A stretch of 32,000 bases of DNA from Paenibacillus tarimensis. GTDB taxonomy: Bacteria > Bacillota > Bacilli > Paenibacillales > Paenibacillaceae. Positions 1 to 16,831 of the stretch are shown one piece after another (the stretch's first letter is position 1; each line of letters begins with the position of its first letter). The translations under genes were made by a program, and so were the position numbers. The notes below the pieces were generated by a model that searched no databases, had not been told where the DNA came from, and saw nothing but the letters and a program-made list of their open reading frames with translations. The DNA is taken from contig NZ_JAKGAO010000007.1 of assembly GCF_021532315.1 (NCBI RefSeq), positions 140,285 to 172,284 on the forward strand. The letters are read 5' to 3'.

Positions 1-141
1 ATGAGAGATTCGGCGGACAGGAAGGCAATTGCGCCTTACCTGATTCCGGTGAAGGTGACGGTCAAGAATGCGGCAGAGCCGGATAACAAGCGCGGCTGGA
101 CTGAGGTGGAGGGATATATTACCGATGAAGCGATTCGTTAA
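1..141 (+). CDS. 3' end of an upstream CDS (partial, product unknown; probably the same minor-pilin operon)
   Basis: Frame +1 is open from base 1 to TAA at 139-141. It overlaps the ATG of the next pilin-like gene (125) by 17 nt, which is a typical operon junction. The 46 visible residues carry no recognisable motif. Confidence 0.45.
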   Translation: MRDSADRKAIAPYLIPVKVTVKNAAEPDNKRGWTEVEGYITDEAIR

Positions 142-673
142 CAGAGCGGCCGATGAGCGGGGGTTTACACTAATTGAGCTGATCGCGTCGCTCACGCTGT
201 TGTCGGTGGTGCTTGGTGTTATATACGGCTCTATTACCTTTGGAATCAATGCTTATAACAAGATTAGTATAGAAAACTCGCTTCGCGATGAAGGAGATTT
301 AATTATGTCCTCCATTATGACGGAGCTGTACACGTTTGGCCCGGATGAGCTTGAGCAGCTGGACGGAAGCGGGACGAAGATCGCGCTGCGGCTGAACGGG
401 AATCCGGGAGTGGAGCACCAGTTGTATATCGCGCCTAACGGGGAGAACAGAGGAGCGCTGTTTATCGAGGAAGCGGTCGGGCGCCGGGAAATCCCGGTTC
501 AGGCAGAGGTGGTCCCGGTTTCTGCTGAGGAACCCCGGGGTTCCAGTATCAAGCTGAGCTGCCCGGCGGGAGACGCCTGCAGCAGCGGACTGCTGGAAGT
601 CAGGCTGCTCCTGCGCCATATGCACGGGAATGAGCCTATGGAGCTGGAGCTGGTCAGCAAATTCGGTTTTTAG
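125..673 (+). CDS. Type IV pilus minor pilin / pseudopilin with prepilin-type N-terminal cleavage-methylation domain
   Basis: From the internal ATG at 125 the product begins MKRFVNRAADERG|FTLIELIASLTLLSVVLGVIYG. That is the class III signal: G-1, F+1, E+5, then a hydrophobic helix. The track ORF starting at 68 adds an unlikely 19-aa extension. The subtype (PilV/PilW/ComGF-like) cannot be resolved by eye. Confidence 0.8.
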   Translation: MKRFVNRAADERGFTLIELIASLTLLSVVLGVIYGSITFGINAYNKISIENSLRDEGDLIMSSIMTELYTFGPDELEQLDGSGTKIALRLNGNPGVEHQLYIAPNGENRGALFIEEAVGRREIPVQAEVVPVSAEEPRGSSIKLSCPAGDACSSGLLEVRLLLRHMHGNEPMELELVSKFGF

Positions 674-693
674 GGAGAACGGGGGAAAGGCTT

Positions 694-2454
694 TTGAGGC
701 GGTTGAGGGAAGAGGGAGGATCGGCCTTCCTGATGGTCATATTCATGATCCTGCTCTTCATGATGCTGGGCATGGCCGTGCTAAGCGCTAGTATCGGCGG
801 AGCTCACCGTACAGAGAAGAGTGAGGATAATGTGCAGAGTCTGCATCTCGCGGAAAAAGCGCTGAACGAAGCGGCGGCGCATATCGCTGCAGAATATAAT
901 GGCAAGGAAATGGCTATCCGGCCCGCTGAGCTGATGGCGGAGCTGCAGGATTTTGTCAAGGCATTCAACGACAGGGCTGTCGGTACGGACTTAGAAGGCG
1001 CAAGCGGCCTCATTGAGTCGATCGTTTATACAGGGGAGGATCTGCAAGCAGATGAGCAGAAGCTCGATTATTACCTGAGGGTGACGGCCAAGACGGAAGT
1101 GAATGGTTCAGTCCGGAGGCTGTCGCAGGAGATTGTGCTGGATACATTCCCGGATTTTCTGCGTTACGGGCTGGGATCGGAGGAAGGGGATGTGATCCTG
1201 AACGGCTCGCCATATCTGGCAGGCAATCTGTATGTGGGAGATGAGCTGAAGCTCAGCAGTATGGCCGGCTACCGGTATTTGGGCCAGGAGCTTGCTGTAC
1301 AATCGCAGTTCCCGTATCTGGCTCAGCAGGGAGGCCAATACGGCGAAGTCTATGTATCGGCAGTGGATCGAATCAAGCACCGTGAGGACCGGGTAAGCAT
1401 CTATGTGCCGCTGAGCGATCCTGCGCATATCACCCGTTATCTGCATAGCGAGCCGAGCCGTATCAAGCTGAAGGATAACAAGAAGTTTGTCTCCATTGAT
1501 GTGGAGCAGTCCTTCCTGGACAAGGCTGCCTTAACGGCCGGGGATGACCAGAATGTGCGGAACGAGCTGGCCTCCAGGTACGAGGGAAGTATGAAGAAGC
1601 AGGATAATATGCTGTCCATACTTAACGAACGGTTCAAGGAGGATGGCAACGGAGACGGCAGCCCGGACGGAGAGGGATGGCTAACGCCGCCGGTTATGCC
1701 TGAGCTTGCGGAGCCTACAATAGAGGATGAGGAGCGTTATGCGGCGGAGGTGCGCAATTTTGCGGCTAAGCTGGAGAGCTTGGCCAAGCCGGTAATCGTC
1801 GAAGGTCCGCTCAAGCTGGGCGATGATTACAAGCGCATCTATTACACAGATAAATCGGCGGGCAATTGGCTTATCGTGAACGGCGACCTGATTGTGGAAA
1901 ACTACGAAGACCAGTTCGTTACCATACGCGGCAACATCCTGGTGACAGGCGATATAATTATCAAGGGCAAGCTTGCGGTGGATGCGACCATGATCGGGCT
2001 CGGCAAAACAGAGGTTGTCGATGCACAGATCAGGGGGATTGGCGGCAAGCAGCTGCTGGTCCTGATCTCGAAGGGACCGGTCGATGTGTACCGTTATGAC
2101 GCATTTCAGCCTATTACAGAGGCCTACAGCAGGGAAGATGACTATACGCTGGATGCCTTCTTCTACACAGATGCTGAAGCGGAGCTGTACGGAGTAGGAT
2201 CGACCTTCTGGATGAATGGCGGCTTCTTTGCCCGCGGAGACATCACGATCAATGCAGTCTTAGGTTCGACAAAGGCGGTTGAGGGAGAGAGGTCCCTGCA
2301 GTTCGATGCCCGCAGCCAATCGGCGATACCTGGCGAACAGTCCCGATTTGTCATTGATTATAATCAAAATGTCTTCACAAGTCAGAGCACCGGCCTGCCG
2401 CGCGTCAAGAAGGTCAAGGTCACCATCGGCCGCAAGTGGCTGGAAAGCCAGTAA
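694..2454 (+). CDS. Large PilX-N-like pilus assembly / minor pilin-like protein (586 aa)
   Basis: TTG start at 694 follows the RBS GGGGGAAAGG. The N-terminus RRLREEGGSAFLMVIFMILLFMMLGMAVLSASIGG resembles the PilX_N/TadG/ComGG type hydrophobic segment (no E+5). The C-terminal part has repetitive beta-strand-like runs (NGDLIVEN...IRGNILVTGDIIIKGKLAVD). It sits immediately downstream of a prepilin-type gene. Confidence 0.6.
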   Translation: MRRLREEGGSAFLMVIFMILLFMMLGMAVLSASIGGAHRTEKSEDNVQSLHLAEKALNEAAAHIAAEYNGKEMAIRPAELMAELQDFVKAFNDRAVGTDLEGASGLIESIVYTGEDLQADEQKLDYYLRVTAKTEVNGSVRRLSQEIVLDTFPDFLRYGLGSEEGDVILNGSPYLAGNLYVGDELKLSSMAGYRYLGQELAVQSQFPYLAQQGGQYGEVYVSAVDRIKHREDRVSIYVPLSDPAHITRYLHSEPSRIKLKDNKKFVSIDVEQSFLDKAALTAGDDQNVRNELASRYEGSMKKQDNMLSILNERFKEDGNGDGSPDGEGWLTPPVMPELAEPTIEDEERYAAEVRNFAAKLESLAKPVIVEGPLKLGDDYKRIYYTDKSAGNWLIVNGDLIVENYEDQFVTIRGNILVTGDIIIKGKLAVDATMIGLGKTEVVDAQIRGIGGKQLLVLISKGPVDVYRYDAFQPITEAYSREDDYTLDAFFYTDAEAELYGVGSTFWMNGGFFARGDITINAVLGSTKAVEGERSLQFDARSQSAIPGEQSRFVIDYNQNVFTSQSTGLPRVKKVKVTIGRKWLESQ

Positions 2455-2460
2455 ACAGAT

Positions 2461-2497
2461 GAGAGCCAGCAGCTGCAGGGACGCGGCGCTGGTTCTC
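2461..2497 (+). terminator. Possible weak terminator hairpin after the minor-pilin operon
   Basis: GAGAGCCAGC (2461-2470) pairs with GCTGGTTCTC (2488-2497), including one G-U pair, across a 17-nt loop. It is followed by TTATTGG, which is a poor U-tract. Confidence 0.3.
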
Positions 2498-2679
2498 TTA
2501 TTGGCAGACGACCTGCCCGCAATTAAATGTATGCGTTTACAAAAAAGTGTCATTAGAGTACTTTGAAGTTCATAAAGTGTTAACAAAGCCGTTATATTCA
2601 ACATTTAATGCGTTGGCTCACTAGGAGGGTACGAAGTCCCAAGAGCATCCTGGAATATCCTTCAAAAGGAATAAATCTA

Positions 2680-2708
2680 TTGATTTTAATAGGTCTTTGT
2701 CTTATATT
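2680..2708 (+). promoter_or_regulatory. Candidate sigma-A promoter for the agr-like cassette
   Basis: TTGATT (2680-2685), a 17-nt spacer, then TATATT (2703-2708), about 120 nt upstream of the TTG start at 2827. This is a pattern match only. Confidence 0.3.
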
Positions 2709-2826
2709 CAAATCAGAGTAAAAGGACGAAATATTACCAGACGTTCTTAACAAGAAGTTGCTAATTTAATGATTAGCGGAGAAATCATCTATCTAGGGCA
2801 AGAAATCCTCGAGGGGACTGATAGAG

Positions 2827-3453
2827 TTGAGTTTTCTGGGGTTTATGTTTTTTTCCACAATTGAAGGCTTGGCAATCTATGCTTTTGCCCTCTATGTTTT
2901 CAGAATGGATCTTCGGAAGTATATATGGCATGTATTAACGATGATCTTACTCATTACATTTCAAAACTATATTACTAGGGATATGCTCGAACTCTCCCAG
3001 CTCTCCACAGTTGGCAACTTAATTGTAACAGCTTTATTCTTCAACACTATCATTAGAATCCCGATGATCTGGTCCTTAATTATGACAGTAACCGGGTTCA
3101 TAGGGCTAGGAATAATACAAACCCTAATCATATTCGGGTCCTTTGGATATTTTTCTATTGAAGAAGCAGCGGCACATGCATGGAAAACCTATACCATTCA
3201 AGGTGTTACCGGAGTTATCGGTTTTCTTATAGGTTGGGGGCTTTACAGGAAAAGACTTGGCTTTACTTTCGATTTCGACAATATAGTAATTAAAGGCGAG
3301 AGGCTTTTTGTCATTACGATTATCGGATTATTCATTCTTGCTTGGATCGGCATGGTATTATTTGAAAATGTTTATTTGAATCTATTTGGCCTGTTAATAG
3401 CCTTGTTGATCTTTCTGGTATATTCAATCAAGAAGGAATTGGCTGAACGATGA
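2827..3453 (+). CDS. Polytopic membrane protein (about 6-7 TM, 208 aa), no soluble domain; first gene of the agr-like cassette
   Basis: TTG start at 2827 lies 9 nt after GAGGGGA; an alternative ATG is at 2845. The protein is almost entirely hydrophobic helices (FLGFMFFSTIEGLAIYAFALYVF, IWHVLTMILLITF, MIWSLIMTVTGFIGLGIIQTLIIFG, LFVITIIGLFILAWIGMVLF, LFGLLIALLIFLVYSI). Its stop overlaps the agrB start as ATGA (3450-3453). The size and topology match the sensor module of AgrC-type kinases, but no HisKA or ATPase region follows. Confidence 0.7.
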   Translation: MSFLGFMFFSTIEGLAIYAFALYVFRMDLRKYIWHVLTMILLITFQNYITRDMLELSQLSTVGNLIVTALFFNTIIRIPMIWSLIMTVTGFIGLGIIQTLIIFGSFGYFSIEEAAAHAWKTYTIQGVTGVIGFLIGWGLYRKRLGFTFDFDNIVIKGERLFVITIIGLFILAWIGMVLFENVYLNLFGLLIALLIFLVYSIKKELAER

Positions 3454-3965
3454 CAATCTATGCTGTCTCTATGCGAATCGCTGAATCCATAAAGAAGGCG
3501 GCACCCGATCATCCCGCAAGTGTAGAGGTTCTACGGTATTCTGTTTCCTTTTTGATCAATACATTTTTAATCATATCGTTCACACTCTCAATTGCTTGTA
3601 TTACAGGGCGACTGACAGAAGCCTGCATATCCTTATTTTCCTTTGCTTTATTAAGGCAGGTTTCTGGAGGATATCATTTAGGCTCAGGTATGTGGTGTAT
3701 TCTGCTCTCTACCTTGCTATTAACCGGACTGACTTTCGTTGAATTCCAACCGCAGATCATAGATACTATGAATGTTGTTAGTGCGGTTCTTGTTTTAATT
3801 TATGCGCCATCTAGAATTGAGCGGCAAACCAGGATATCAGCCAAGCATTTTCCTGTACTAAAACTGGTATCATTCTGGATTGTAGCATTAAGTTTCTTAG
3901 CAGGAGATTCAGTCTTAACTGCTACCTTGTTCGTTCAATCCCTATCATTGATAAGAAGACTATAA
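3450..3965 (+). CDS. agrB: AgrB-family accessory gene regulator B (AgrD-processing membrane cysteine peptidase)
   Basis: A 171-aa membrane protein carrying the AgrB signature LRQVSGGYHLGSGMWC. His76 (CAT 3675-3677) and Cys83 (TGT 3696-3698) are 7 residues apart, matching the catalytic H77/C84 pair of S. aureus AgrB. An AgrD-like ORF follows immediately. Confidence 0.85.
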   Translation: MTIYAVSMRIAESIKKAAPDHPASVEVLRYSVSFLINTFLIISFTLSIACITGRLTEACISLFSFALLRQVSGGYHLGSGMWCILLSTLLLTGLTFVEFQPQIIDTMNVVSAVLVLIYAPSRIERQTRISAKHFPVLKLVSFWIVALSFLAGDSVLTATLFVQSLSLIRRL

Positions 3966-3981
3966 GGGAGAGGTGAAGCCT

Positions 3982-4104
3982 GTGAAAAGTAAAGTTTTTT
4001 ACAGACTTGCGACAATCTTAGCTGCTCTTGCAGTTGCAGTTGTATCGTCAGCTAGCTGGATGTACTTTCACCAAGACGAAACGCCGGAAGAATTGCTGAA
4101 ATAA
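3982..4104 (+). CDS. agrD: AgrD-like cyclic (lactone) autoinducing peptide precursor, 40 aa (absent from the ORF track)
   Basis: GTG at 3982 follows the RBS AAGGGAGAGGTG. Translation: VKSKVFYRLATILAALAVAVVSSASWMYFHQDETPEELLK. It has an N-terminal amphipathic/hydrophobic helix, a central S-W-M-Y-F, and an acidic tail with Pro 6 residues after the Phe plus an EL motif. This is the same layout as S. aureus AgrD (CDFIM|DEVEVPKEL). It lies directly 3' of agrB. Confidence 0.7.
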   Translation: MKSKVFYRLATILAALAVAVVSSASWMYFHQDETPEELLK

Positions 4105-4127
4105 TTATGGCGGGGATGGGTTAAATC

Positions 4128-4508
4128 ATGCTTTTGTCTCTGACTCATGACATTGACGGAAAATCTGGATTTGTTCATGTCGAAGCGGACGATCTCTTGT
4201 ACATATCCTATGACAGCATGACTAACCGTGTATCGTTCCACACCTTAGACGACGAATACTTCGCCATGGGCACGCTGAAGTACTTTATTGAGACGTTCCT
4301 TCACTCGGGTTATGTCTTCGATAAGGTTGACCGCAACAATGCGGTTAATATGCAGAAAATTACGCTGGTCGACGAAAGGATGGGTCTCGTTTACTTTGAT
4401 GAAAGACCCGACCGAAGATCCAAGAAATGCACAGTAGCGGTTTCCAACTTCAAGAATATTATGCTTAAGCTGAAGTCCTTCAACCCGGATATCGCTGTAC
4501 TGCGCTAA
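4128..4508 (+). CDS. Stand-alone LytTR DNA-binding domain protein (AgrA C-terminal-domain-like, no receiver domain)
   Basis: The 126-aa product aligns by eye with the AgrA LytTR domain. VHVEADDLLYISYDS matches VYVQYDDIMFFESST. MGTLKYF matches YGNLKEL. NAVNMQKITLVDERMGLVYF matches FVVNRHNIESIDSKERIVYF. KCTVAVSNFKNI matches HCYASVRNVKKI. Only about 14 residues precede the domain, and only 23 nt separate the gene from agrD, so there is no room for a receiver domain. Confidence 0.85.
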   Translation: MLLSLTHDIDGKSGFVHVEADDLLYISYDSMTNRVSFHTLDDEYFAMGTLKYFIETFLHSGYVFDKVDRNNAVNMQKITLVDERMGLVYFDERPDRRSKKCTVAVSNFKNIMLKLKSFNPDIAVLR

Positions 4509-4513
4509 GAGAT

Positions 4514-4553
4514 AACAGGTACTGCCTGAGTAGGCGGTACCTGTTTCTTTTTA
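4514..4553 (+). terminator. Rho-independent terminator ending the agr-like cassette
   Basis: AACAGGTACTGCC (4514-4526) pairs with GGCGGTACCTGTT (4533-4545) as a 13-bp stem with one G-U pair. TCTTTTTAT follows. Confidence 0.7.
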
Positions 4554-4661
4554 TGGTCCGTTACATGAATTCTATCTGCTGTAAACTCGCAACCTTTGCG
4601 GATTTTCGTCGTCTAATAGGTGGCTGGATGAATATGTAAAAGATTGTGGGATGGTGATGAA

Positions 4662-6161
4662 ATGATCAGGAAGTTAAGGGTATTGGTCATCTGTTGGATC
4701 GCTTTCTGTCTAATTCTTACGGGACAAGCGTCACTGGCGCAGGCGAAGCCGGGGTCAGAGCCAGCATCGGCATCAATTGTGCTGAACGGAGCGAAGCTTG
4801 AGATGCTGCCGGGTGTCACCATCCCGATCGTAAGCGGCAATGTTATGATTCCGATCCGTATGGTTGTGCAGGGACTAGGTTATGAGGTGAAGTGGCAGCG
4901 GAATGAGCAGAAGGTGACGGTGTTTGCGTCAGGCAAGACCATTGAGATGACGATCCGAAGTGAAGAGGCATTGGTGGACGGAGCGGCCAAACGTATGGCG
5001 GCTGCGCCGATAGTAATCTCGGGTACTTCATATATTCCTCTGCGGTTTGTCGGGGAGGAGTTAGGTCTTAGGGTAGGCTGGGATAACAAGAGCAAGACGG
5101 TGTCGCTTGATACGGTAATGCCTGCAGAACCGGAGTTGGATCTACCGACTCATGATCCGGCGGTACCGGCAGCTCCGGGGGTGCCGGGCGGTGCGGCTCC
5201 TGTACAGGTAGAGGCGATCAGCTATGCGGATAACCGGTTGACCGTGTACACCAGCGCAGCGGTAGAGCCGAAGATCTTTACAATGACAGGTCCGGACCGG
5301 ATCATTATGGATATATCCAATGCGGTATTTTCCGCTTCGCTTGCGCAATCGGTCGGGACCGGCGGACAGGGAGAAATCGCTGTAAATGATGCTTATGTGA
5401 ACCGGATTCGTTATTCCGTATTCTCTAAAGACCCGGCAGCCGTCCGTATTGTTATAGATACCGCGCAGGTTATCCCTTATGAGGTGCTCAAAGGGCAGGA
5501 AGGCGGCTCTTACATCGTTATCGACCTGAATGCAGGTATAGCTAGCGCACCCGCTCAGCCGATTGGCCAGGATGGGAAGAAGCTGGTCGTTATTGATCCG
5601 GGTCATGGAGGCTCTGATCCTGGTGCGGCAAGTGTATCGGGCAGGAGGGAGAAGGACTTTACCTTATCGTTATCGCACAAGGTTGCTGAGCTGCTGTCGG
5701 CGGAGCCGGGCGTTGATGTCATTATGACCCGCAGCGATGATACGTATGTAGAGCTCGGCAGCCGCGGGACTATGGCTAACGCGCTTCGTGCCGATTTATT
5801 TCTATCTATACACGGCAATTCTTTTCCGCAAAACCCCTCGGTCAGGGGGACAGAGACTTATTACTACAATGAAGCTTGCAGGCCATTCGCCGAGCTGATG
5901 CACAGGCATCTATTGGGAGCAGCGGGTTTCCCCGACCGCAAGGTGAAGAGCAAGAGTCTGAAGGTGCTGCGGGATGCGACTATGGATGCCCTGCTGCTCG
6001 AAATCGGCTTCCTCTCGAACTCGGCGGAGGAGGCGGTCATGTTCGATGAGTCCTTCCAGTGGCGTGTTGCTCAGGCTATTGTGGCAGGAATCATGGAGCA
6101 GCTGCAGATGCGGCAGGAACAGGAACCGCTGCAGGAGCAGATGCCGCTGCCAGGGATGTAA
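4662..6161 (+). CDS. N-acetylmuramoyl-L-alanine amidase (Amidase_3) with N-terminal copper-amine-oxidase-like stalk domain and central AMIN-like domain
   Basis: ATG at 4662 gives the signal peptide MIRKLRVLVICWIAFCLILTGQASLAQA. A Cu_amine_oxidN1-like repeat follows (VMIPIRMVVQGLGYEVKWQ...SYIPLRFVGEELGLRVGWD). Next come a Pro-rich linker and an AMIN-like segment (LTVYTSAAVEPKIFTMTGPDRIIMDISNAVF...VNRIRYSVFSKDPAAVRIVID). The catalytic motifs VIDPGHGGSDPGA, LFLSIHGNS and GTETYYY are present. Confidence 0.9.
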   Translation: MIRKLRVLVICWIAFCLILTGQASLAQAKPGSEPASASIVLNGAKLEMLPGVTIPIVSGNVMIPIRMVVQGLGYEVKWQRNEQKVTVFASGKTIEMTIRSEEALVDGAAKRMAAAPIVISGTSYIPLRFVGEELGLRVGWDNKSKTVSLDTVMPAEPELDLPTHDPAVPAAPGVPGGAAPVQVEAISYADNRLTVYTSAAVEPKIFTMTGPDRIIMDISNAVFSASLAQSVGTGGQGEIAVNDAYVNRIRYSVFSKDPAAVRIVIDTAQVIPYEVLKGQEGGSYIVIDLNAGIASAPAQPIGQDGKKLVVIDPGHGGSDPGAASVSGRREKDFTLSLSHKVAELLSAEPGVDVIMTRSDDTYVELGSRGTMANALRADLFLSIHGNSFPQNPSVRGTETYYYNEACRPFAELMHRHLLGAAGFPDRKVKSKSLKVLRDATMDALLLEIGFLSNSAEEAVMFDESFQWRVAQAIVAGIMEQLQMRQEQEPLQEQMPLPGM

Positions 6162-6575: not shown

Positions 6576-9500
6576 TCAGTACACATCACCGCTGTACAAC
6601 GGTTCAACTTTCACTATCATACTGGCCCGGATTTCCGGTCTTGAAGCATCGGGACGATAGATAGCCGTAATGATGGTTGAGCCCCGCTTTAGACCAGTAA
6701 TTATGCCTGAATTTGTAAGACTTACAATACCGGAATCACTGCTGAGCCACTTGACCCCGGGCAGAATGCGGCTGCGCATGGATGCTGGAAGCACCTGCAG
6801 ATCCGGCCCCAGAGAATGGCTGCTTCCTTGTGTGATCGTTCGGCTTGCCGGCAGGCGAAGCCGGATGACGGTGCCCTCATACTCAGCTCTGAAGGCAGCG
6901 CCAGATGTCGTCTGAATATGGACAACAACGGTTACGCTCCCGGCATCATTGCCGGTCAAGCTGGCTGTTTGAGGGTCGGCAGGCGGGCTGCTTAGTGAAG
7001 CGGTCCGCGCAGCTTCCCCTTCCTTCAACGTCCATCTGATGCTTTGAATGCTGCCTGGCGGCAGAGGACTGCCTTGCCACTCCAGCCCCAGATTAATCGT
7101 CTCTCCTATGCCAAATGCATCATGCCCGGTAATGCGGACGCTGCGGTCGTTAATGACAACTGTATGCTCGGCTGTAATTTGGTCACCGGATGCAAGAACG
7201 CCGGTAACAACTACGGTTACGCTGCCGGCTTCCACTGCTTTTAATGTACTTTCCAGCCTTTCAGTGCCGGACGTCAGCCTGGCCTTGGAGGCATCCGAAA
7301 GTCCCTTTAAGGACCAGGTGACGGACTGCACCATAGCAGCTGGCAGCATAACTGGGTTTCCTTCCGTATCGATCCATTCCGCGCGAAGCCCGATCTGCTC
7401 GCCCTTGCCGGTCTCGGACGGACCGGCGATCCGCAGTCGGGGATTGACGATTGTGACGCTGTGCTCGTCAGAGTAGGTATGCTTCACAGCGCCGGTGGCG
7501 AGATCATAGGTCGTTGCCTGAACGACGACTGTTACGGTACCGGCCTTCGTGCCGGTCAGTTTGCGATCCCAGACACTACCGCTGTCCGCCTCGGCAATCG
7601 CCGCTTTCGTGCTGTCTGCCTCGTTCTTGAAGCTCCAAGTTACCGAATCAGCCTGAATCGTCTCATTCGCTGTTTGTCTTAGTACGGCCTGCAGCGGCAG
7701 GGCAGAGCCTACCGTCACGGTATTGCCGCCATTAATGCTAAGGCCTGTCTTCACGACATTTATGGCTGCTTGCGCGGTCAGGCCGCTTACAGCATCCCGT
7801 ACGGTTACGATAGCTGTACCGGGTGCGATGCCTTTCACAGTCCCGATCTCATTGATCTCGAGTACGCTGCGGTTGCTGGACTCCCAGGTGAAGATGGGAG
7901 AAGTAGCGTCTGCCGGACTGTATGAAGGATGCAGCGGCAATTCTTCGCCAACAGCTATCTCTGAGCCTGCGAGCGACAGCTTGTCGATCATCGTGATGGC
8001 CTGGAAGCTCAGGGGCTGGAAAGGAACGGTGATCGTTTGGGTCTCGCCAATATCCCGGAAGGACACCCGCGATTGATCCAATGTATAGTTGCCGTTGTTG
8101 ACGGCTCTAATGCCGACTTCGAAGCGGATCGGTTCAGCCGTGTACATGCTGCCGTCCTCCGAGAGTTGGTATGTTACATCGGGCAGAGTGCCGCTGATTG
8201 TATAGCCGGAATCTATACTCCCGGAGGTGCTCATCCATGAAGGCAGAGTGGTTATCTCAATGCCCTTAGGCATGGTCTCGCGGAAGGAGACTTGATGGAT
8301 GACAAGCTTATGCGGCTCCGTTGTAGAGTGTGCAGGTATGGGCATAGGCGTCAGCTGATAGTGCACGGTCAGCGGATCACCTTTTTCGGCCACCGGGCTT
8401 CCATTGCCGTCCGCACTTTCTCTCAGGCCTGACATGTGCCGGCTGACGGTAAGATTGGTTTCGATCTTCTTGATCTTGACCGGCACTTCCTTGATGGTCT
8501 TGGCTCCTTTCTTATCGCGCGCAATCACCTCTACGGTTAGATCGCCGCCTTGGGGCAGCGGATTCGTGAATGTCTGGGTCACGGTGGAGCCTGATAAGAC
8601 ATCCGCCTGCTGATACTTGCGCACAATTTGCCCGTTGTATTTGAAGTTAACCTCAACATATACGCGTGGGTCGGCCAAATCCCAGTCCTCAGGCTTGAAG
8701 CTTACTGCGATTCTCTGATAAGACGGAATATAATTGTCTTCCAGTTCCGTATAGGGGCGCGGCGTGAAGACAGTCAGCTTCGGCGCATGGTTCGAGCCGA
8801 TGAACGCCCGGTACATAGTATTGACGAACAGCTTTTCTTCCCAGTCGGGAAACGGGTCCGATAAGTAGCTGGTCTGGCTGTTCAGGAAGACGTGCCCGCT
8901 GCCCGAATAAGTGACATTGCCTTTGGAATACGTGTAGTAATGATTCCAGCTGTCATTAGGGTCCCGGCTTCCGCCCGAAATGTTATACCAGCTGATAATA
9001 CTGTCATCCTCCAGATCGAGGGTGAAATATTGATTGTGCGTTCTGGCAACCGAAGTGGCTGCATGGCTGATATTGAACGGATATTGCGTGAGCAGCCCAT
9101 CATTGACCTTTACGGTAGTCGTCGATGTCCTGGGGGCGGTTAGTCCCAGGTTGGTCTGTGTTCCCCTCTGCCCGGTCGTATCCTGGAAGTAGCGAATCCA
9201 GTTATTGTTGTCTCCAAAGACGGTGTCATGTGTGAACATAACGGCCTGGCCGGTGCCGATGAATGCGTTAACGGCTTCCGCCGCGGCATCGCTAATGCCG
9301 GAATAACGGTTGTATTCGTCGATAAATCCGAAGATCAGCATATCGTACCGGCCGTTCAATTCCCGATACCCGCCGCTGTTAAATTTGTTAAACTCCGTCA
9401 CGTCGATATGAATCTCAAATTCGCCCGCCTTCTTCAAGTAGGACTGCTTCAGTGTGGCGTCCCGCTGCAGGGAGCTGAACAGCTTGCCGTTTGGCATGAC

Positions 9501-10871
9501 CTGCAGCACGTTAACGACGGTCGTCTCATCCTTGAAGCGGATCACACCGCTCTGAAAATCCTTAAGCCTGCTGTTCTGGTCCACAAGCTCCAGCTTCCAA
9601 TAGTGGACACCGGAATAGCCCTTGGGCAGACGGTAGGTCAATTCGCCTTCTGGCCCGGTTACGGGTGTGGATGCTACCATCTGGTCGGGTGTGAACCGCA
9701 GCACCTGGTCCAATCCGATATACAGGTTGGCTGTTAGCCTCCGCTGGCTGAAGTCGGGGATATTGGCGGCGTTAAACTTGAAGGTGAGCGTATTGCCTGT
9801 GCTGTGAATGTAATCAGGATTCACGTTGTAATCAATGGGCCGCTCGCTTAGGACCAGCTTGGGCCGCTGCCGCAGGATTCGGCTATAGTTGTCCTCAGTC
9901 AACAGGCCGGCCAGACGGATGAGCCTGTCCTCGTTAATAAACAGAACATTGTCCCGGGCTTCTGAAGGCTTGCTGAAACGGCTGAACGTATTATAGAGCT
10001 TGCCCTTCTGTGGACTCTGGTAGAGAAGGCCGCTGCGCTGACCCGCATCACTGTAAAACATGACCAGCAGACCTTTATTAATATAATGCTGAATGATCTC
10101 ATTGGCCTTAAGCTGGGTGATGTCGTTCATTACATTCCGGGTATCATGCCAGCTCTCCCGGTTGGAAGAAGTTGTGACCGGAACAGTCTCCGGATTATAG
10201 CTGCCTTTGCCGATATAGATAGCATCATATTTGCCGTCCAGATCCCCGCGGAGTGCGACGAACCGTTTCATGCTCATTGTCTCTACCTCAATATAAGGGA
10301 CGGGACTGAGAATGGTTTGAATATCGGAGCTCCCGGTGTCAGTAATCTCCAGAATCTTGACGGGATGGTGCTCGGTCAGCTTGAAGCCGGTACATGCCCC
10401 GGCTGAGGTTTTGCTGGCGGCAAGCGGATAGGTGGTGCTGTCTAGCGACTTGTCCGCGCACACATATTTATTTTTGGAATCGATAAGGGATACCGTACCG
10501 TCTGTGTGATGGACTAGTGTGAACTGTTCCCGGGCTCCTATACTCGATGCAGCAGCTGTAAGCCGGCTTGAAGTGGAACTGACGCTCACATATTTGCCGT
10601 TACTCTCGGACTTTAGGGCAATACTGCCGCTGCTTAGCATGCTGAGTTCAAAAAGCTCGGCTGCCGCAGCATCCGTTGTGCTGGTGGATACGGCTGCTCC
10701 GTTACTGGTTATGGTTACGTATTTGGCGTTTATCTTCGCTTGAAGGGAGACAAGCTTACCTGTCCCGGCATGCACCTGACGCTCGCCAATTCCTGTGACT
10801 GCAAAGGCTGTGAAAATCATGCTGAGCGCAACTAGAAGGGTAAGCGGACGGTTGAACGTTCTTCTTCTCAT
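6576..10871 (-). CDS. Large secreted multidomain protein (1431 aa): signal peptide, beta-trefoil (fascin/ricin-like) module, two alpha/beta modules (DUF5057/ThuA-like by recollection), Ig-like region, five C-terminal Big_2-type Ig repeats
   Basis: The start is set at ATG 10871, preceded by AGGAGG at 6-nt spacing. The signal peptide is MRRRTFNRPLTLLVALSMIFTAFAVTGIGERQVHA. A threefold NGKYV/NKYV repeat pattern follows (AKYVTITSNG, NGKYVSVSS, KNKYVCADK). Two similar modules are present (KILEITD...LDGKYDAIYIG and VNVLQVMPNG...LNGRYDMLIFGF...GQAVMFTHDT). The C-terminal ~475 aa (nt ~6576-8005) form five ~95-aa repeats with Big_2 hallmarks (e.g. SNRSVLEINEIGTVKGIAPGTAIVTVRD; SSDSGIVSLTNSGIITGLKRGSTIITA). 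No LPXTG, SLH or choline-binding anchor is seen. Confidence 0.85.
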   Translation of the reverse strand: MRRRTFNRPLTLLVALSMIFTAFAVTGIGERQVHAGTGKLVSLQAKINAKYVTITSNGAAVSTSTTDAAAAELFELSMLSSGSIALKSESNGKYVSVSSTSSRLTAAASSIGAREQFTLVHHTDGTVSLIDSKNKYVCADKSLDSTTYPLAASKTSAGACTGFKLTEHHPVKILEITDTGSSDIQTILSPVPYIEVETMSMKRFVALRGDLDGKYDAIYIGKGSYNPETVPVTTSSNRESWHDTRNVMNDITQLKANEIIQHYINKGLLVMFYSDAGQRSGLLYQSPQKGKLYNTFSRFSKPSEARDNVLFINEDRLIRLAGLLTEDNYSRILRQRPKLVLSERPIDYNVNPDYIHSTGNTLTFKFNAANIPDFSQRRLTANLYIGLDQVLRFTPDQMVASTPVTGPEGELTYRLPKGYSGVHYWKLELVDQNSRLKDFQSGVIRFKDETTVVNVLQVMPNGKLFSSLQRDATLKQSYLKKAGEFEIHIDVTEFNKFNSGGYRELNGRYDMLIFGFIDEYNRYSGISDAAAEAVNAFIGTGQAVMFTHDTVFGDNNNWIRYFQDTTGQRGTQTNLGLTAPRTSTTTVKVNDGLLTQYPFNISHAATSVARTHNQYFTLDLEDDSIISWYNISGGSRDPNDSWNHYYTYSKGNVTYSGSGHVFLNSQTSYLSDPFPDWEEKLFVNTMYRAFIGSNHAPKLTVFTPRPYTELEDNYIPSYQRIAVSFKPEDWDLADPRVYVEVNFKYNGQIVRKYQQADVLSGSTVTQTFTNPLPQGGDLTVEVIARDKKGAKTIKEVPVKIKKIETNLTVSRHMSGLRESADGNGSPVAEKGDPLTVHYQLTPMPIPAHSTTEPHKLVIHQVSFRETMPKGIEITTLPSWMSTSGSIDSGYTISGTLPDVTYQLSEDGSMYTAEPIRFEVGIRAVNNGNYTLDQSRVSFRDIGETQTITVPFQPLSFQAITMIDKLSLAGSEIAVGEELPLHPSYSPADATSPIFTWESSNRSVLEINEIGTVKGIAPGTAIVTVRDAVSGLTAQAAINVVKTGLSINGGNTVTVGSALPLQAVLRQTANETIQADSVTWSFKNEADSTKAAIAEADSGSVWDRKLTGTKAGTVTVVVQATTYDLATGAVKHTYSDEHSVTIVNPRLRIAGPSETGKGEQIGLRAEWIDTEGNPVMLPAAMVQSVTWSLKGLSDASKARLTSGTERLESTLKAVEAGSVTVVVTGVLASGDQITAEHTVVINDRSVRITGHDAFGIGETINLGLEWQGSPLPPGSIQSIRWTLKEGEAARTASLSSPPADPQTASLTGNDAGSVTVVVHIQTTSGAAFRAEYEGTVIRLRLPASRTITQGSSHSLGPDLQVLPASMRSRILPGVKWLSSDSGIVSLTNSGIITGLKRGSTIITAIYRPDASRPEIRASMIVKVEPLYSGDVY

Positions 10872-11035
10872 GGAGTGCCTCCTATTTCGGATATCTCTAT
10901 GATAACGAATTCCAATATGCATAGACATAGTATAAAAGGACTAATAATAGGTGTATATACTCACGTGCTTGTAATATGGCTGTAAGAATTGTCGAAGACA
11001 AATTAAGATACAATATTTTTGGTTATTGTCTTGTC

Positions 11036-11244: not shown

Positions 11245-12909
11245 ATGGCCATCGTGAAGAAAAGGCTGGGCGACCTTCTGGTGGAGAGCCGGATTATTTC
11301 GCAGGAGCAGCTGCAGGAAGCACTGGCAGAGCAGAGCAAGTCGAAGCAGAAGCTGGGTGACCTGCTCATAACCCAAGGCTACATAACGGAGCAGCAGCTG
11401 ATCGAGGTACTGGAATTTCAGCTGGGCATTCCGCATGTCAGCTTATACAAATATCAGATAGATCCTACGATTACTCAGATTATTCCGGAGAGCTTGGCGC
11501 GGCGTTATCAAGCAATACCGTTTCATAAGGAAGGCGGCAAGCTGATGGTCGCGATGGCGGACCCTCTGGATTATTTTGCCATTGAGGAGCTCCGCATGAG
11601 CACAGGGTTCAGAATTGAACCCGCTATCTCAAGCAAGGATGAGCTTCAGCGCGCCATAGCACGTCACTACGGCCTGCAGGATTCCATGAGCCAGATGATG
11701 GTCGAGCTTCCCAATCAGGAAGAGATCCGGGAGACGGAGATTACAGATGAGGACTCTCCTGTCGTGAGGCTGGTTAACCAGATGATTCAGCAGGCTGTGC
11801 AGCTGCAGGTTTCTGACATTCATGTGGACCCGGGGGAAGCCAATGTCGCTATCCGCTACCGGGTTGACGGCGTGCTTCGCACCGAGCGGATGATTCCAAA
11901 ACAGATGCAGGGCTTTATTACTGCACGGCTCAAGATTATGGCGAGACTGAATATTGCGGAGCGGAGACTGCCGCAGGATGGTCGGATTAAGATGCAGGTG
12001 GATTACAGGACAGTCGATATTCGGGTATCGACACTTCCTACCATCCATGGTGAGAAAATCGTGCTCCGGATTCTTGATCTGAGCATCGGTGTGAAGGCGC
12101 TGGATCACCTAGGCTTCGGTTCACGTAATCATCAAGCGTTCAAGAGCATGATCGAGAAGCCGTACGGCATCATTCTCATCACAGGACCCACAGGCAGCGG
12201 CAAGACGACTACGCTTTATTCGGCGCTGCATCACCTGAATCAGGAAGGTGTCAATATCATGACGCTGGAGGACCCGGTGGAGTACCAGCTGGAAGGGATT
12301 AACCAGGTGCATGTAAACCCGGGAATCGGACTTACTTTTGCCGCAGGGCTACGCTCGATACTGAGACAGGACCCGAATATCGTGATGGTCGGTGAAATCC
12401 GTGATACAGAAACGGCCGAGATGGCGATCCGGGCTTCGCTTACAGGGCATCTTGTATTATCTACACTGCATACGAATGATTCGATCAGCACCGTTACGCG
12501 TTTCCGTGACATGGGGGTCGAAACCTACCTGATCGCTTCTTCACTGGTAGGCGTTGTAGCCCAGCGGCTTGTCCGACGGATTTGTCCGGACTGCAAGACT
12601 GCCTATGAGCCTAGTGAGCAGGAAGCTATTTATATGAAGAGCCGCGGAATCACAGCTGACAAGCTGTACAAGGGAACCGGCTGCGGCAACTGCAACAAGA
12701 CAGGCTACCGCGGACGGCTTGCTGTCCATGAAGTGCTGGTTGTAGATGACCGGCTGAGGCAGCTGATTGCACAAGGAGCGACAATTCAGGAGCTCCGGGA
12801 GGAAGCAAAGGCGGCTGGCATGGTTCAGCTTATGGATGATGGTCTGGAGAAGGTGAAGCTTGGCGCGACAACACTGCAGGAAGTGCTGCGCGAGACGGTA
12901 TCAAATTGA
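11245..12909 (+). CDS. pilB: Type IV pilus assembly (extension) ATPase PilB (GspE family)
   Basis: An N-terminal MshEN/T2SSE_N-like repeat is present (LGDLLVESRIISQEQLQEAL...LGDLLITQGYITEQQL). So are Walker A GPTGSGKTTT, Asp box LEDPVEY, Walker B ILRQDPNIVMVGEIRD, His box TGHLVLSTLHTND and the tetracysteine motif CPDC...CGNC. Confidence 0.92.
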   Translation: MAIVKKRLGDLLVESRIISQEQLQEALAEQSKSKQKLGDLLITQGYITEQQLIEVLEFQLGIPHVSLYKYQIDPTITQIIPESLARRYQAIPFHKEGGKLMVAMADPLDYFAIEELRMSTGFRIEPAISSKDELQRAIARHYGLQDSMSQMMVELPNQEEIRETEITDEDSPVVRLVNQMIQQAVQLQVSDIHVDPGEANVAIRYRVDGVLRTERMIPKQMQGFITARLKIMARLNIAERRLPQDGRIKMQVDYRTVDIRVSTLPTIHGEKIVLRILDLSIGVKALDHLGFGSRNHQAFKSMIEKPYGIILITGPTGSGKTTTLYSALHHLNQEGVNIMTLEDPVEYQLEGINQVHVNPGIGLTFAAGLRSILRQDPNIVMVGEIRDTETAEMAIRASLTGHLVLSTLHTNDSISTVTRFRDMGVETYLIASSLVGVVAQRLVRRICPDCKTAYEPSEQEAIYMKSRGITADKLYKGTGCGNCNKTGYRGRLAVHEVLVVDDRLRQLIAQGATIQELREEAKAAGMVQLMDDGLEKVKLGATTLQEVLRETVSN

Positions 12910-12925
12910 CAGCGGAGGAGAAGGT

Positions 12926-14008
12926 ATGCCTCATTACATCGATGAAATAGCCGGGGGACAACAAGAAGACAGGGAGCGGTTGACAGCTCTGCTGCTAGCT
13001 GTGCATGAGGCAGGGGCATCCGACCTGCATCTGGCGGCCGGGTCGCCTCCAGTCATGCGTCGGCACGGGCAGCTTCAGCGAATAGGGCAGCAGCCGCTGA
13101 CAGCTGAGGCAATCAGCGGAATAGCGAGGGGGCTGCTTGAAGGGAAGCAGTGGGAACGATTTTGGGAGCTTGGAGAGATGGACTTTGCCTGGAAGCTTGA
13201 AGGTATATCCAGGTACAGGGTTATTGCCTACCTGCAGCGCGGACAGGTCAGCTTGGCGATCCGGACTATCCCGTTGGATATCCCTACACTGAGCTCCCTT
13301 GGCCTGCCCCCCGTTGTGGAGACGTTAGCTGGGAAGCCGCACGGACTGGTGTTGGTGACCGGCCCGACAGGCAGCGGCAAATCATCAACACTGGCAGCGA
13401 TGATCGACCATATTAACGGTACTCAGAAGAAGCATATCGTAACACTTGAGGATCCGGTGGAGTTCGTGCATCCGAACCGGTTGTCACTGATCCAGCAGCG
13501 TGAGGTGGGTCAGGATACCGGCAGCTTTGCCAGCGGACTGCGGGCTGCATTGAGGCAGGACCCGGATGTCATTCTTGTCGGAGAGATGCGTGATCCGGAA
13601 ACTATAGGGGCTGCGGTTACGGCGGCCGAAACCGGACATCTGGTGCTCGCAACGCTGCATACAACGGATGCGCCGCAGACAATTGACCGGATCATTGATG
13701 CTTTCCCGGCAGAGCAGCAGGCTCAGGTTCGAGGGCAGCTGGCAGCTGTACTGGCGGGGGTTATATCCCAGCGGCTGCTTCCCCGCCCGGATGGGTCAGG
13801 CCGCTGCTGTGCAGTCGAAATTATGATTAACACCCCGGCAGTCGCCAACCTGATTCGCACCGAGAAGAATCATCAGATTCGCAATGTGCTCCAGACAGGG
13901 CGGGCACAAGGAATGATTACGCTCGATATGTCCGTGCAGGAGCTTCTCCGGCAAGGCCTGGTTGAACCCATGGCCGCTAAGGCCTGCCTGACGGAAGGAG
14001 CGGTCTGA
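12926..14008 (+). CDS. pilT: Type IV pilus retraction (twitching motility) ATPase PilT
   Basis: ATG at 12926 follows GGAGGAG; the track start at 12860 lies inside pilB and is rejected. The 360-aa product has GPTGSGKSST, LEDPVEF, LRQDPDVILVGEMRD and TGHLVLATLHTTDA. It also has the PilT-type C-terminal motif AVANLIRTEKNHQIRN (compare AIRNLIREgK). Confidence 0.9.
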   Translation: MPHYIDEIAGGQQEDRERLTALLLAVHEAGASDLHLAAGSPPVMRRHGQLQRIGQQPLTAEAISGIARGLLEGKQWERFWELGEMDFAWKLEGISRYRVIAYLQRGQVSLAIRTIPLDIPTLSSLGLPPVVETLAGKPHGLVLVTGPTGSGKSSTLAAMIDHINGTQKKHIVTLEDPVEFVHPNRLSLIQQREVGQDTGSFASGLRAALRQDPDVILVGEMRDPETIGAAVTAAETGHLVLATLHTTDAPQTIDRIIDAFPAEQQAQVRGQLAAVLAGVISQRLLPRPDGSGRCCAVEIMINTPAVANLIRTEKNHQIRNVLQTGRAQGMITLDMSVQELLRQGLVEPMAAKACLTEGAV

Positions 14009-15216
14009 TGCCGGAGTTTGCCTATCACGTCAAGAGTGCTAGCGGCAAGCAGCTCAAGGGGCGAATGTCTGCTATGGACAAGTCGTCTGCGGTGGAGGAG
14101 CTGCGTAAGCGCGGACTTATCGTACTGTCACTTGATGAGAAGCGGAAGACGCTGCTGTCGACGGAGATTTATATCGGCAACCCGGTCAAGCCGCAGCATT
14201 TTATTATCTTTTGCCGGCAGCTCGCCACCTTGATCCGCGCAGGCGTTACGATCGTAGAAGCTTCCAGCATATTGGCCAGCCAGACAGAGAGTAAGCCGCT
14301 GAAGAAGGCGCTAATCGAAGTTCATGCCGGTCTGATGCGTGGTCATGCCTTCTCGCAGACCGTGCAGGAGCAGAAGAAGATTTTCCCGGCCATCTTTACG
14401 AGTATGATACGCGCTGGTGAGGAGACGGGTGATCTGGATGGGACGCTGGACAGGCTGGCGCGGTTCTTCGAGAAGCAGCATGCCACCCGGGAGAAAATCA
14501 AGTCAGCCCTCACCTACCCGATTGTTGTTGGTGTGCTAGCGCTCGCTGCGGTTGTGTACCTGCTGATTTCGGTTGTGCCGCAGTTTGTCCAGATGTTCGA
14601 GTCAATGGATGCAGAGCTGCCCGCGATAACGAAGCTGGTTCTCTCGCTCAGCAACAGTGTTGTCGATTACTGGTACTACTGGGTACTGACGGCAGTGGCA
14701 TTGCTCTCGGGCCTGTTGTTGATGAAGCGGAGCGACAAGGGGGCTTACTGGCTGGATTATGCCAAGCTGAAGATTCCGGTATTTGGCAAGCTGGCCCAGA
14801 AGGGCGCAATCGCGCAGATGTCTCGGACCCTTGCGTCGCTCTACGCGAGCTCGGTCCCGGTTCTGCAGTCGCTTGCGATTGTTGAGGAAGTGGTTGGCAA
14901 CAAGGTGATGGGACGCTATATCAGGCGTTCCGCTGATTCTCTTCGGCGGGGAAATCCGTTATCTGATCCGCTGAAGCAGGCTTGGGTATTCCCGCCGCTT
15001 GTGACCCAGATGATTGCGATTGGCGAGGAAACAGGCTCGCTCGACCAGATGCTGGCGAAAGTAGCGGACTTCTACGAGGCGGATGTGGACAACACCGTTG
15101 ACCGGCTGAAATCACTGATCGAGCCGCTGCTGCTGGTCTTCCTGGCGGGAGTCGTCGGCCTGATCGTCGCCGCCGTTATGCTGCCGATGTTCAGCATGTA
15201 CGAGCAGATGAGCTAG
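14008..15216 (+). CDS. pilC: Type IV pilus platform protein PilC (GspF family)
   Basis: A 402-aa protein with two GspF-type repeats (FCRQLATLIRAGVTIVEAS...; MSRTLASLYASSVPVLQSL...) and three TM segments. Its ATG overlaps the pilT stop (TGATG). Confidence 0.9.
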   Translation: MPEFAYHVKSASGKQLKGRMSAMDKSSAVEELRKRGLIVLSLDEKRKTLLSTEIYIGNPVKPQHFIIFCRQLATLIRAGVTIVEASSILASQTESKPLKKALIEVHAGLMRGHAFSQTVQEQKKIFPAIFTSMIRAGEETGDLDGTLDRLARFFEKQHATREKIKSALTYPIVVGVLALAAVVYLLISVVPQFVQMFESMDAELPAITKLVLSLSNSVVDYWYYWVLTAVALLSGLLLMKRSDKGAYWLDYAKLKIPVFGKLAQKGAIAQMSRTLASLYASSVPVLQSLAIVEEVVGNKVMGRYIRRSADSLRRGNPLSDPLKQAWVFPPLVTQMIAIGEETGSLDQMLAKVADFYEADVDNTVDRLKSLIEPLLLVFLAGVVGLIVAAVMLPMFSMYEQMS

Positions 15217-15329
15217 CAGAGCGGCGCGGGGCAGGGCAGGAATAGGAATTGTAACATGGATTGGAAGTATGAATTCGTTTGGACCGGACTTATAAGTCTG
15301 TTCAATTATATAAGAGAGGAAGATTTAAT

Positions 15330-15830: not shown

Positions 15831-16004
15831 TCAAACAATTCAGTTTTCCTGAACACTCTACAAACTCTATATAATAATCGAAAGGTATTCGGGCAATAGC
15901 ATCGGGCTATTACAGAAATTACCGTAAGAGGTGCGAGTGAGAGGGATATCGTTCAGGTTCTAGCGGTGGCCCGCTTGAAAGTACTGTCATTGCCACAACA
16001 ACCA

Positions 16005-16040
16005 CAGCAGGAACAGACCCTGTTCCTGCTGTTTCATTTT
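16005..16040 (+). terminator. Rho-independent terminator/attenuator between pilA and pilD
   Basis: CAGCAGGAACAG (16005-16016) pairs with CTGTTCCTGCTG (16020-16031) as a perfect 12-bp stem with a 3-nt loop. TTTCATTTT follows. Confidence 0.7.
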
Positions 16041-16054
16041 AACCTAGGAAAGAG

Positions 16055-16825: not shown

Positions 16826-16831
16826 CGGGAT

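Follow-up and report, generated by a model that had tools for sequence, protein, structure and literature searches.

A 32,000-nucleotide stretch of the Paenibacillus tarimensis contig NZ_JAKGAO010000007.1 (hereafter the window) contains, at positions 3982-4104 of its forward strand, an open reading frame (ORF) that starts with GTG and encodes 40 amino acids (aa), and our sequence analysis confirms it as a true agrD, from a Paenibacillus that is related to P. sambharensis. It is the third gene of an apparent four-gene operon, in which it follows the genes of a 208-aa membrane protein with seven helices and of AgrB and precedes the gene of a LytTR-only protein. Taken as a whole, our favoured account, in which this agrD specifies a Ser-ring peptide made by AgrB and AgrD (AgrBD) and sensed in a manner suggested by the gene context, is probably right. 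The peptide itself is a further member of the known AgrD family, relatives of which are already recognised by automatic annotation; the more novel point, we infer, is the kinase-less hypervariable cassette in which it lies. The genes concerned are the following.

2827-3453, forward strand: 208-aa membrane protein with seven predicted helices, candidate receptor for an autoinducing peptide (AIP) or candidate LytTR partner.
3450-3965, forward strand: agrB, 171 aa, AgrD-processing cysteine peptidase (PF04647, 66.1 bits against a cut-off of 23).
3966-3976, forward strand: Shine-Dalgarno site of agrD, GGGAGAGGTGA, purine-rich, its GAGG core ending 8 nucleotides (nt) before the GTG.
3982-4104, forward strand: agrD, with leader or signal peptide at 3982-4053 (M1-A24) and ring codons at 4054-4068 (S25-W-M-Y-F29).
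4069-4101, forward strand: recognition tail of AgrD, HQDETPEELLK, followed by the stop codon at 4102-4104.
4128-4508, forward strand: 126-aa stand-alone LytTR DNA-binding protein without a receiver domain (PF04397, 25.9 bits against 22.6).

The first-pass annotation of this stretch had read the ORF as an AgrD-like precursor behind a strong ribosome-binding site and had proposed scoring it with TIGR04223, the model of the AgrD family. The product, (M)KSKVFYRLATILAALAVAVVSSASWMYFHQDETPEELLK (full translation from the GTG, VKSKVFYRLATILAALAVAVVSSASWMYFHQDETPEELLK*), reaches 37.8 bits with this model against a cut-off of 19 (E 1.4e-9), the match spanning peptide residues 9-40 and model positions 7-38 of 38. 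Together with an agrB directly upstream that carries the catalytic dyad, agrD starting at 3982, 16 nt downstream of the agrB end (3965), and with the conservation of the small ORF described below, this score bears out the AgrD-like reading. A second GTG, at 3973, falls within the Shine-Dalgarno stretch and lacks a ribosome-binding site of its own, and the homologous small ORFs are preceded by equivalent AAGGAGGTGA sites. The same annotation had called the ORF unannotated, which stands in part only: the product is already present in a public protein collection (entry P0001) and its relatives carry the NCBI name 'cyclic lactone autoinducer peptide', whereas in another assembly with an identical membrane protein and the same gene order (L053) the stretch from agrB to the LytTR gene is left without a gene. 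The annotation status of this AgrD thus depends on the annotator. A word-index search of a 5.8-billion-protein collection with the 40-aa peptide matched the peptide itself only, and cyclic lactone autoinducer clusters are routinely reported in antiSMASH-based genome papers on Paenibacillus, Cohnella and Brevibacillus. It is very improbable that the ORF is a chance one or specifies a linear peptide secreted through Sec, and undergoes no AgrB processing. Its N-terminus does look like a signal peptide, the SipW-type signal-peptide model TIGR04088 comes near to threshold (18.3 bits, just below the cut-off of 19), and one assembly's gene caller omitted the ORF; against this stand the TIGR04223 score, well over its cut-off, the strong Shine-Dalgarno site, and a PEELLK tail and Ser position that are kept across 47 loci, always beside agrB.

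The AgrB of the window belongs to a divergent subfamily, since it exceeds the PF04647 cut-off but scores 28 against the cut-off of 282 of the NCBIfam equivalog NF002210. When aligned with 21 relatives at 40-54% identity, mostly from Paenibacillus (22 sequences), its residues R69, G73, G74, H76 and C83 are invariant, and His76 and Cys83 correspond to His77 and Cys84, the dyad of AgrB in S. aureus (PMC10482373), the numbering of the two dyads being near-identical. A search of the AgrB profile against the PDB found nothing. Scanning genomes with the AgrB alignment yielded 49 loci in Paenibacillus, Cohnella and Brevibacillus, and a small ORF of agrD architecture accompanies agrB in 47 of these, directly after it in every case except L043, in which the membrane-protein gene lies in between. 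Conservation next to agrB homologues, which the first-pass annotation had named as a check on its reading, is therefore found in 47 of the 49 loci.

The position of the ring was examined by anchoring 38 unique homologue sequences on the invariant Pro, giving 22 aligned positions. Ten residues before this Pro, Ser is found in 33 of the 38 sequences and Cys in one (L041, CTWFF). The next two positions, Pro-9 and Pro-8, have entropies of 3.0 and 2.8 bits, the highest of all aligned positions except -16 in the leader, followed by Tyr or Phe at Pro-7 and Val or Ile at Pro-6. On the C-terminal side, the P-x-E-L motif has an invariant Pro and Glu and a Leu in 36/38 sequences, and P-x-E-L-L-K is nearly invariant overall. 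Ser22 and Ser23 of the window's peptide are not conserved among the homologues. An AIP precursor is expected to vary in its ring and to keep its nucleophile and its recognition tail fixed, as is seen here, and the assignment of the ring to Ser25-Phe29, already made in the first-pass annotation, is thus well supported by the alignment and by an analogue from C. thermocellum with the same geometry (see below). Further points of that annotation on the sequence of this part of the peptide also hold. The codons (Ser25 AGC, 4054-4056; Phe29 TTT, 4066-4068; Pro35 CCG, 4084-4086) place Pro exactly six residues after Phe29, the translation contains no Cys, the nucleophile aligns as Ser with AgrD-like ORFs of related genomes, and the core SSASWMYF is followed by an acidic recognition tail, 11 aa long with a net charge of -3 and a conserved PxEL.

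On the evidence of this alignment, the nucleophilic Ser is a stable trait of a deep clade and not a recent Cys-to-Ser change; in staphylococci, in contrast, the Ser is regarded as such a recent change. Five AgrD-like ORFs (L039:5503-5625, L040:5502-5633, L042:5513-5632, L048:5516-5635 and L057:1399-1515) lack both Ser and Cys where the nucleophile is expected and carry a Lys one residue further on, e.g. ...ITLKPFAFSPKAPKEL and ...AGKWLFGAPAIPTELKK. They adjoin AgrB and the membrane protein, are named 'hypothetical protein' by NCBI, and could conceivably, from their sequences, form a lactam ring through the Lys side chain. The sole Cys-type AgrD of the set lies in L041 (4248-6435) between two membrane-protein paralogues of 236 and 243 aa, with no LytTR gene nearby.

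The closest precedent for the geometry is Clo1313_2818 of Clostridium (Acetivibrio) thermocellum, in which SignalP places a cut at A24|S25, the lactone spans Ser25-Phe29, and the Pro is residue 35 (PMC5322536). Compared by positions, A24|S25, F29 and P35 coincide with those of the window's peptide, and both have a signal-peptide-like leader. Targeted LC-MS/MS (tandem mass spectrometry coupled to liquid chromatography) detected the tail-less Ser25-Phe29 lactone pentapeptide in culture supernatants of that species (PMC5322536). The two systems differ in that C. thermocellum is a thermophilic Clostridium with, according to the authors, no agrB, agrC or agrA adjacent (PMC5322536), whereas agrB lies upstream in the window. 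The genes flanking its AgrD, Clo1313_2817 and Clo1313_2819, are annotated only as 'hypothetical protein'; they may belong, so far unnoticed, to the families of AgrB, the membrane protein or the LytTR-only protein.

In the agrBDCA system of S. aureus, AgrD has Cys28, which matches S25 of the window's peptide, and an essential Leu41, and AgrB has His77/Cys84 (PMC10482373). The likeness to the window comprises a three-part precursor, a nucleophile ten residues before the Pro, a five-residue ring and a PxEL tail, as well as a hypervariable allelic segment within conserved flanks. By our numbering of S. aureus AgrD, Leu41 is Pro+3 and matches L38 of the window's peptide. The differences are that S. 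aureus has Cys (here Ser), an amphipathic leader (here one resembling a hydrophobic signal peptide) and a tail of 14-15 aa (here 11), and that it possesses an AgrC kinase and a receiver, whereas here no AgrC was found among the genes scanned and the LytTR protein is without a receiver. Products of AgrB-type enzymes with a Ser ester also include the S. intermedius AIP and GBAP, the pheromone that activates gelatinase biosynthesis in E. faecalis, from FsrD (PMC10482373). These two are sensed by AgrC/FsrC histidine kinases. The GBAP ring is larger than a five-residue ring. The only characterised AIP of Paenibacillus is Pp-AIP of P. polymyxa, which derives from ICFGLF, belongs to the Cys-thiolactone class and is N-acetylated by AgrE (PMC12180512). 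Pp-AIP1/2 resemble the present case in being made by AgrBD in the same genus, but are of the Cys class and come from another agr locus, which includes an acetyltransferase gene (PMC12180512). Within the present family, the sequence encoded at the loci of the P. polymyxa group is ...SVASYVYVYQGDTPEELLK.

The leader, which the first-pass annotation had described as amphipathic, is not clearly so. Its hydrophobic moment is 0.25-0.39, whereas AgrD of S. aureus reaches 0.49-0.57 and is lower in mean hydrophobicity. Its layout follows the n-h-c order of a signal peptide, with K2, K4 and R8, then a 13-residue hydrophobic core, and then S-S-A|S; the leader thus looks, from its sequence, like a Sec-type signal peptide rather than an amphipathic helix. 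The residue before the ring (-1) is Ala in 28/38 homologues and Pro in five. Due to the SSA|S signal-peptidase-like site, the Ala at -1 and the C. thermocellum result, a tail-less cyclo[SWMYF] is our best guess for the product (computed neutral mass 714.2836, [M+H]+ 715.2909), so that a guess can be offered on the exocyclic tail, the length of which the first-pass annotation had considered unpredictable, namely that there is none. Were a tail of A, SA or SSA retained, the computed [M+H]+ would be 786.3280, 873.3600 or 960.3920.

By homology, we propose the following maturation pathway. The 40-aa precursor would insert in the membrane via its signal-peptide-like N-terminus, and AgrB, using His76/Cys83, would cleave the Phe29-His30 bond, freeing HQDETPEELLK while keeping the remainder of the peptide as a thioester. 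The Ser25 hydroxyl would then attack this thioester to give the five-residue lactone S-W-M-Y-F, and removal of the leader, most likely at Ala24|Ser25, would leave a tail-less cyclic pentapeptide. A tail-less lactone may further isomerise to a head-to-tail cyclopeptide by an O-to-N acyl shift. Such O-to-N rearrangement has been demonstrated for tail-less thiolactone AIPs of Clostridia, and the fate of the Ser-lactones is stated there to be unresolved (PMC8251862). The active molecule could accordingly be homodetic cyclo(SWMYF), its Ser hydroxyl left free, arising from the same gene and AgrB processing when the Ser25 amine, freed at Ala24|Ser25, takes over the acyl group or attacks the AgrB thioester directly. 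We consider this outcome the less likely one, at roughly one chance in three. It draws on the thiolactone precedent, on the fact that the same authors leave the outcome undecided for Ser-lactones without a tail, among them the one from H. thermocellum (PMC8251862), and on the signal-peptidase-like site immediately preceding Ser25. However, the C. thermocellum product equals a synthetic lactone standard in retention time and MS/MS (PMC5322536), the Ala24|Ser25 cleavage site is a prediction only, and the Pro at -1 in five relatives speaks against a universal signal peptidase I cut. For the lactone, the enzyme itself matters, since Ser-containing AgrD cannot be processed by S. aureus AgrB1 and AgrB2 (PMC10482373); lactone formation therefore depends on the AgrB of this clade.

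The genes around agrD do not form a canonical agrBDCA locus, since no AgrC-type kinase or receiver-bearing AgrA was found among the genes scanned. Pfam scans of the larger ORFs of the window detected no HATPase, HisKA or Response_reg domain, and the precomputed Pfam matches of the called genes on L053 include no kinase or receiver domain. What follows agrD instead is the 126-aa LytTR protein. LytTR is matched by all 14 members of its family, the family profile retrieves the DNA-binding domain of AgrA from the PDB (E 1.5e-6), and the protein is 90% identical to its P. sambharensis orthologue. No DNA-contact residues are assigned, since the conserved His of the LytTR protein pairs with an AgrA His other than the DNA-contacting one.

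The first gene of the operon, whose stop codon overlaps the agrB start (ATGA, 3450-3453), encodes the 208-aa membrane protein. It has no Pfam, NCBIfam or PDB profile-search match, and a Foldseek search with its AlphaFold2 model (seven long helices, predicted local distance difference test score 69) gave a best E of about 1. An exhaustive profile search returned 461 cluster representatives in its family; among the 150 matches listed, full-length members measure ~205-240 aa, and thus none of these carries a kinase fusion. The family keeps only three residues nearly invariant, namely F25, Q98 and G145. From the positive-inside rule we infer an N-out, C-in topology, and with this topology the most conserved motif, YRKxxGFTFDFEKLRFKxE, would sit in a cytoplasmic loop. 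An MroQ/CAAX-type protease identity was rejected because no His/Glu motif is conserved, and hhalign of the membrane protein against the AgrC sensor region gave a probability of 0.2%, a weak test with one AgrC sequence. A distant member of the family stands alone in L050.

The membrane protein and the LytTR protein occur together. In searches of the 49 loci with hidden Markov models, the membrane protein lies beside agrB in 47/49 and the LytTR-only gene in 32/49, and the latter is never seen without the membrane protein. The same four genes are found in a distant member (L054) and, in a different order, in L043. Two further loci (L055:3501-4775 and L058:2022-3263) encode a membrane-protein homologue, a 46-48-aa Sec-type peptide ending in GITWWWW or SITWWWA, and a LytTR-only homologue (98% and 96% by hhalign), and have no AgrB. 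Thus, the membrane protein and the LytTR factor form the constant pair, and the peptide-production part is exchangeable. L055 is surrounded by plasmid- or phage-like genes (ParM-like, helix-turn-helix).

A comparable arrangement is known from HdrRM and BrsRM of Streptococcus mutans, in which a receiver-less LytTR factor shares its transcript with a membrane protein of several passes and acts without a phosphorelay (PMC6193735). Here, too, a receiver-less LytTR gene and a membrane-protein gene share one predicted operon. HdrRM and BrsRM differ in having no identified signal and no peptide-production genes, and their membrane proteins are of other families; HdrM carries DUF2154 (PMC6193735), which no scanned member of the window's membrane-protein family matches.

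The following further features of the operon are needed for the comparison with P. sambharensis.

2544-2585, forward strand: two 12-nt boxes, AAAGTGTCATTA (2544-2555) and AAAGTGTTAACA (2574-2585), candidate operator for the LytTR protein.
2586-4068, forward strand: hypervariable low-GC allelic segment comprising the promoter region, the membrane protein, agrB, and the agrD leader and ring codons.
2680-2708, forward strand: promoter-like site TTGATT-17-TATATT upstream of the membrane-protein gene (consensus scan, 9/12).
4514-4545, forward strand: strong intrinsic terminator closing the operon, with a 14-base-pair (bp) stem of 7 GC pairs, then a T-run.

Aligned by blastn with the syntenic P. sambharensis locus (L005), the window is 87% identical up to 2585 and 81% identical from 4051, and between these positions nothing aligns except a weak 68% patch. 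Within agrD, codons 1-29 are ~60% identical between the two species, whereas the stretch from codon 30 to the start of the LytTR gene is ~98% identical. On its right side the divergence ends at 4068/4069, precisely between Phe29 and His30, where AgrB is predicted to cut; recombination may have had a breakpoint here, or constraint may change sharply. Four-fold sites are 0.18-0.21 identical in the membrane-protein and agrB genes and 0.59-0.76 identical in the flanking genes, including that of the LytTR protein; being saturated within the segment, they indicate that its alleles are much older than the flanks, a pattern also known from the agr specificity groups of staphylococci. The GC content is 37-40% in the segment (2600-4000 of the window, 4000-5600 of L005) and 52-59% in the flanks of both species. 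The membrane protein and AgrB (49% and 53%) diverge together with the AgrD ring, which is SWMYF here and SWVYV in P. sambharensis, against 90% for the LytTR protein. Within the membrane protein, identity between the two species is 62-100% in the predicted cytoplasmic loops and the C-tail, and 0-40% in transmembrane helices 3, 4 and 6 and in the outer loops (except the 2-residue first one). This pattern would fit a protein whose ligand pocket varies along with the ring while its inner face touches a conserved partner.

These observations suggest how the peptide may be sensed. In the reading that we favour, the signal would not be read by an AgrC/AgrA two-component pair; instead, the co-transcribed seven-helix membrane protein would read it and control the co-transcribed LytTR-only factor, as in a LytTR regulatory system, and the variable segment (membrane protein, AgrB, AgrD leader and ring) would act as an allelic specificity cassette. 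For this sensing arm, which is deduced from gene context, we put the chances at close to even. The fuller version is a little more tentative and falls somewhat short of even: it proposes a phosphorylation-independent quorum sensing of the Agr type, in which an undescribed family of ~210-aa seven-helix proteins senses the Ser-peptide and directly controls the LytTR factor, in which receptor, AgrB and AgrD ring are ancient recombining specificity alleles, and in which the receptor/regulator pair also serves Sec-exported linear peptides ending in TWWW. In the literature library searched, no paper was found that links AgrBD to a LytTR regulatory system, which is absence of evidence only.

The 208-aa protein could alternatively be a maturation, export or immunity factor, e.g. 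a partner of AgrB that removes the leader or acts in export, with sensing by an AgrC/AgrA-type system elsewhere and the LytTR-only protein as an accessory regulator or competitor. It lies beside agrB and agrD in 15 loci without an adjacent LytTR gene, its stop/start overlap with agrB suggests expression coupled to the processing enzyme, the processing enzymes of S. aureus likewise co-vary with AgrD (PMC10482373), and the inspected DNA is 32 kilobases (kb) of a genome. However, homologues of the membrane protein and the LytTR-only protein pair around a Sec-type peptide without any AgrB in L055 and L058, and the protein shows neither a conserved His/Glu protease motif, its three nearly invariant residues being Phe, Gln and Gly, nor a Pfam protease or transporter match. 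Moreover, its predicted cytoplasmic loops are its most conserved parts. We consider a maturation, export or immunity role less likely than not.

Several points also weigh against our favoured account, in which AgrBD makes a Ser-lactone that the membrane protein senses. The translation, the processing and the cyclic product are predicted from sequence alone. The recognition tail is shorter than in S. aureus (11 versus 14-15 residues), the Pro at -1 in five sequences is at odds with signal peptidase I, and lactone formation hinges on an AgrB that scores far below the NF002210 cut-off. As to sensing, 15 of the 47 membrane-protein loci (P. polymyxa, P. lautus and Brevibacillus groups) lack an adjacent LytTR gene, the membrane protein resembles no receptor in the Pfam/NCBIfam, PDB profile, Foldseek and hhalign (against AgrC) comparisons, and the genome may hold an AgrC/AgrA pair at a site beyond the 32 kb. 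The DNA upstream of the operon is a further weakness: the hallmark of LytTR regulatory systems is a pair of ~9-bp direct repeats that lie immediately upstream of the -35 and are separated by 11-13 bp (PMC6193735), and these were not found there, the candidate boxes being 30 bp apart, unlike the 9-12-9 pattern of LytTR sites.

These two boxes, at 2544 and 2574, are nevertheless retained from sequence as a candidate LytTR operator. Situated ~95 bp upstream of the -35, they are kept in L005 according to the alignment and constitute the last block shared with P. sambharensis before the variable segment. Their pattern has two exact matches in the 32 kb, namely these boxes, from which it was derived, and boxes of a similar form, GTGTCGA(T/A)T, are seen upstream in further groups of loci. 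Both hexamers of the promoter-like site are conserved in P. sambharensis. A direct repeat at 2780/2801 (21-bp spacing) was considered as a LytTR site and rejected, as it is not conserved in P. sambharensis, abuts the ribosome-binding site and is probably due to chance. An 8-mer survey of 42 upstream regions produced no universal motif, and an Rfam scan of 2300-4800 found nothing.

The cassette sits between two groups of type IV pilus genes (window 1-2454 and 11245-18987). One side has minor pilins that carry N_methyl motifs, together with a protein of 586 aa without a Pfam family, and the other has PilB, PilT, PilC, a pilin, a prepilin peptidase, PilM and PilO. Adjacent to the cassette are an amidase with an AMIN domain (4644-6161) and, on the minus strand at 6576-10928, a DUF5057/Big_2 surface protein of 1450 aa. 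Among the larger window ORFs and the L053 genes, Pfam scans also returned cytochrome oxidase, ABC-transporter, spore lipoprotein and GntR regulator matches; three scanned ORFs have no Pfam family. Two P. polymyxa-group loci have, immediately before the cassette, an ORF of ~400 aa (L012:2550-3809 and L023:2996-4201) that looks by eye like an acyltransferase-3 membrane enzyme; there, agrD is followed by a gene for an RsmD-like methyltransferase, with no LytTR gene.

The peptide adds one predicted Ser-type autoinducer, with the core SWMYF, to a class of which few Ser-lactone AIPs have been chemically verified, in a genus in which another AIP is known to control antibiotic production. If the proposed sensing is true, the peptide would be the first identified ligand for LytTR regulatory systems, and the kinase-less cassette would join two separate fields, Agr signalling and the 'orphan' LytTR systems of unknown signal. 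The cassette may also help account for sensing at agrBD loci without agrCA, and its sharp allelic boundary at the AgrB cleavage site offers a natural experiment on the specificity of signal and receptor in soil Paenibacillus.

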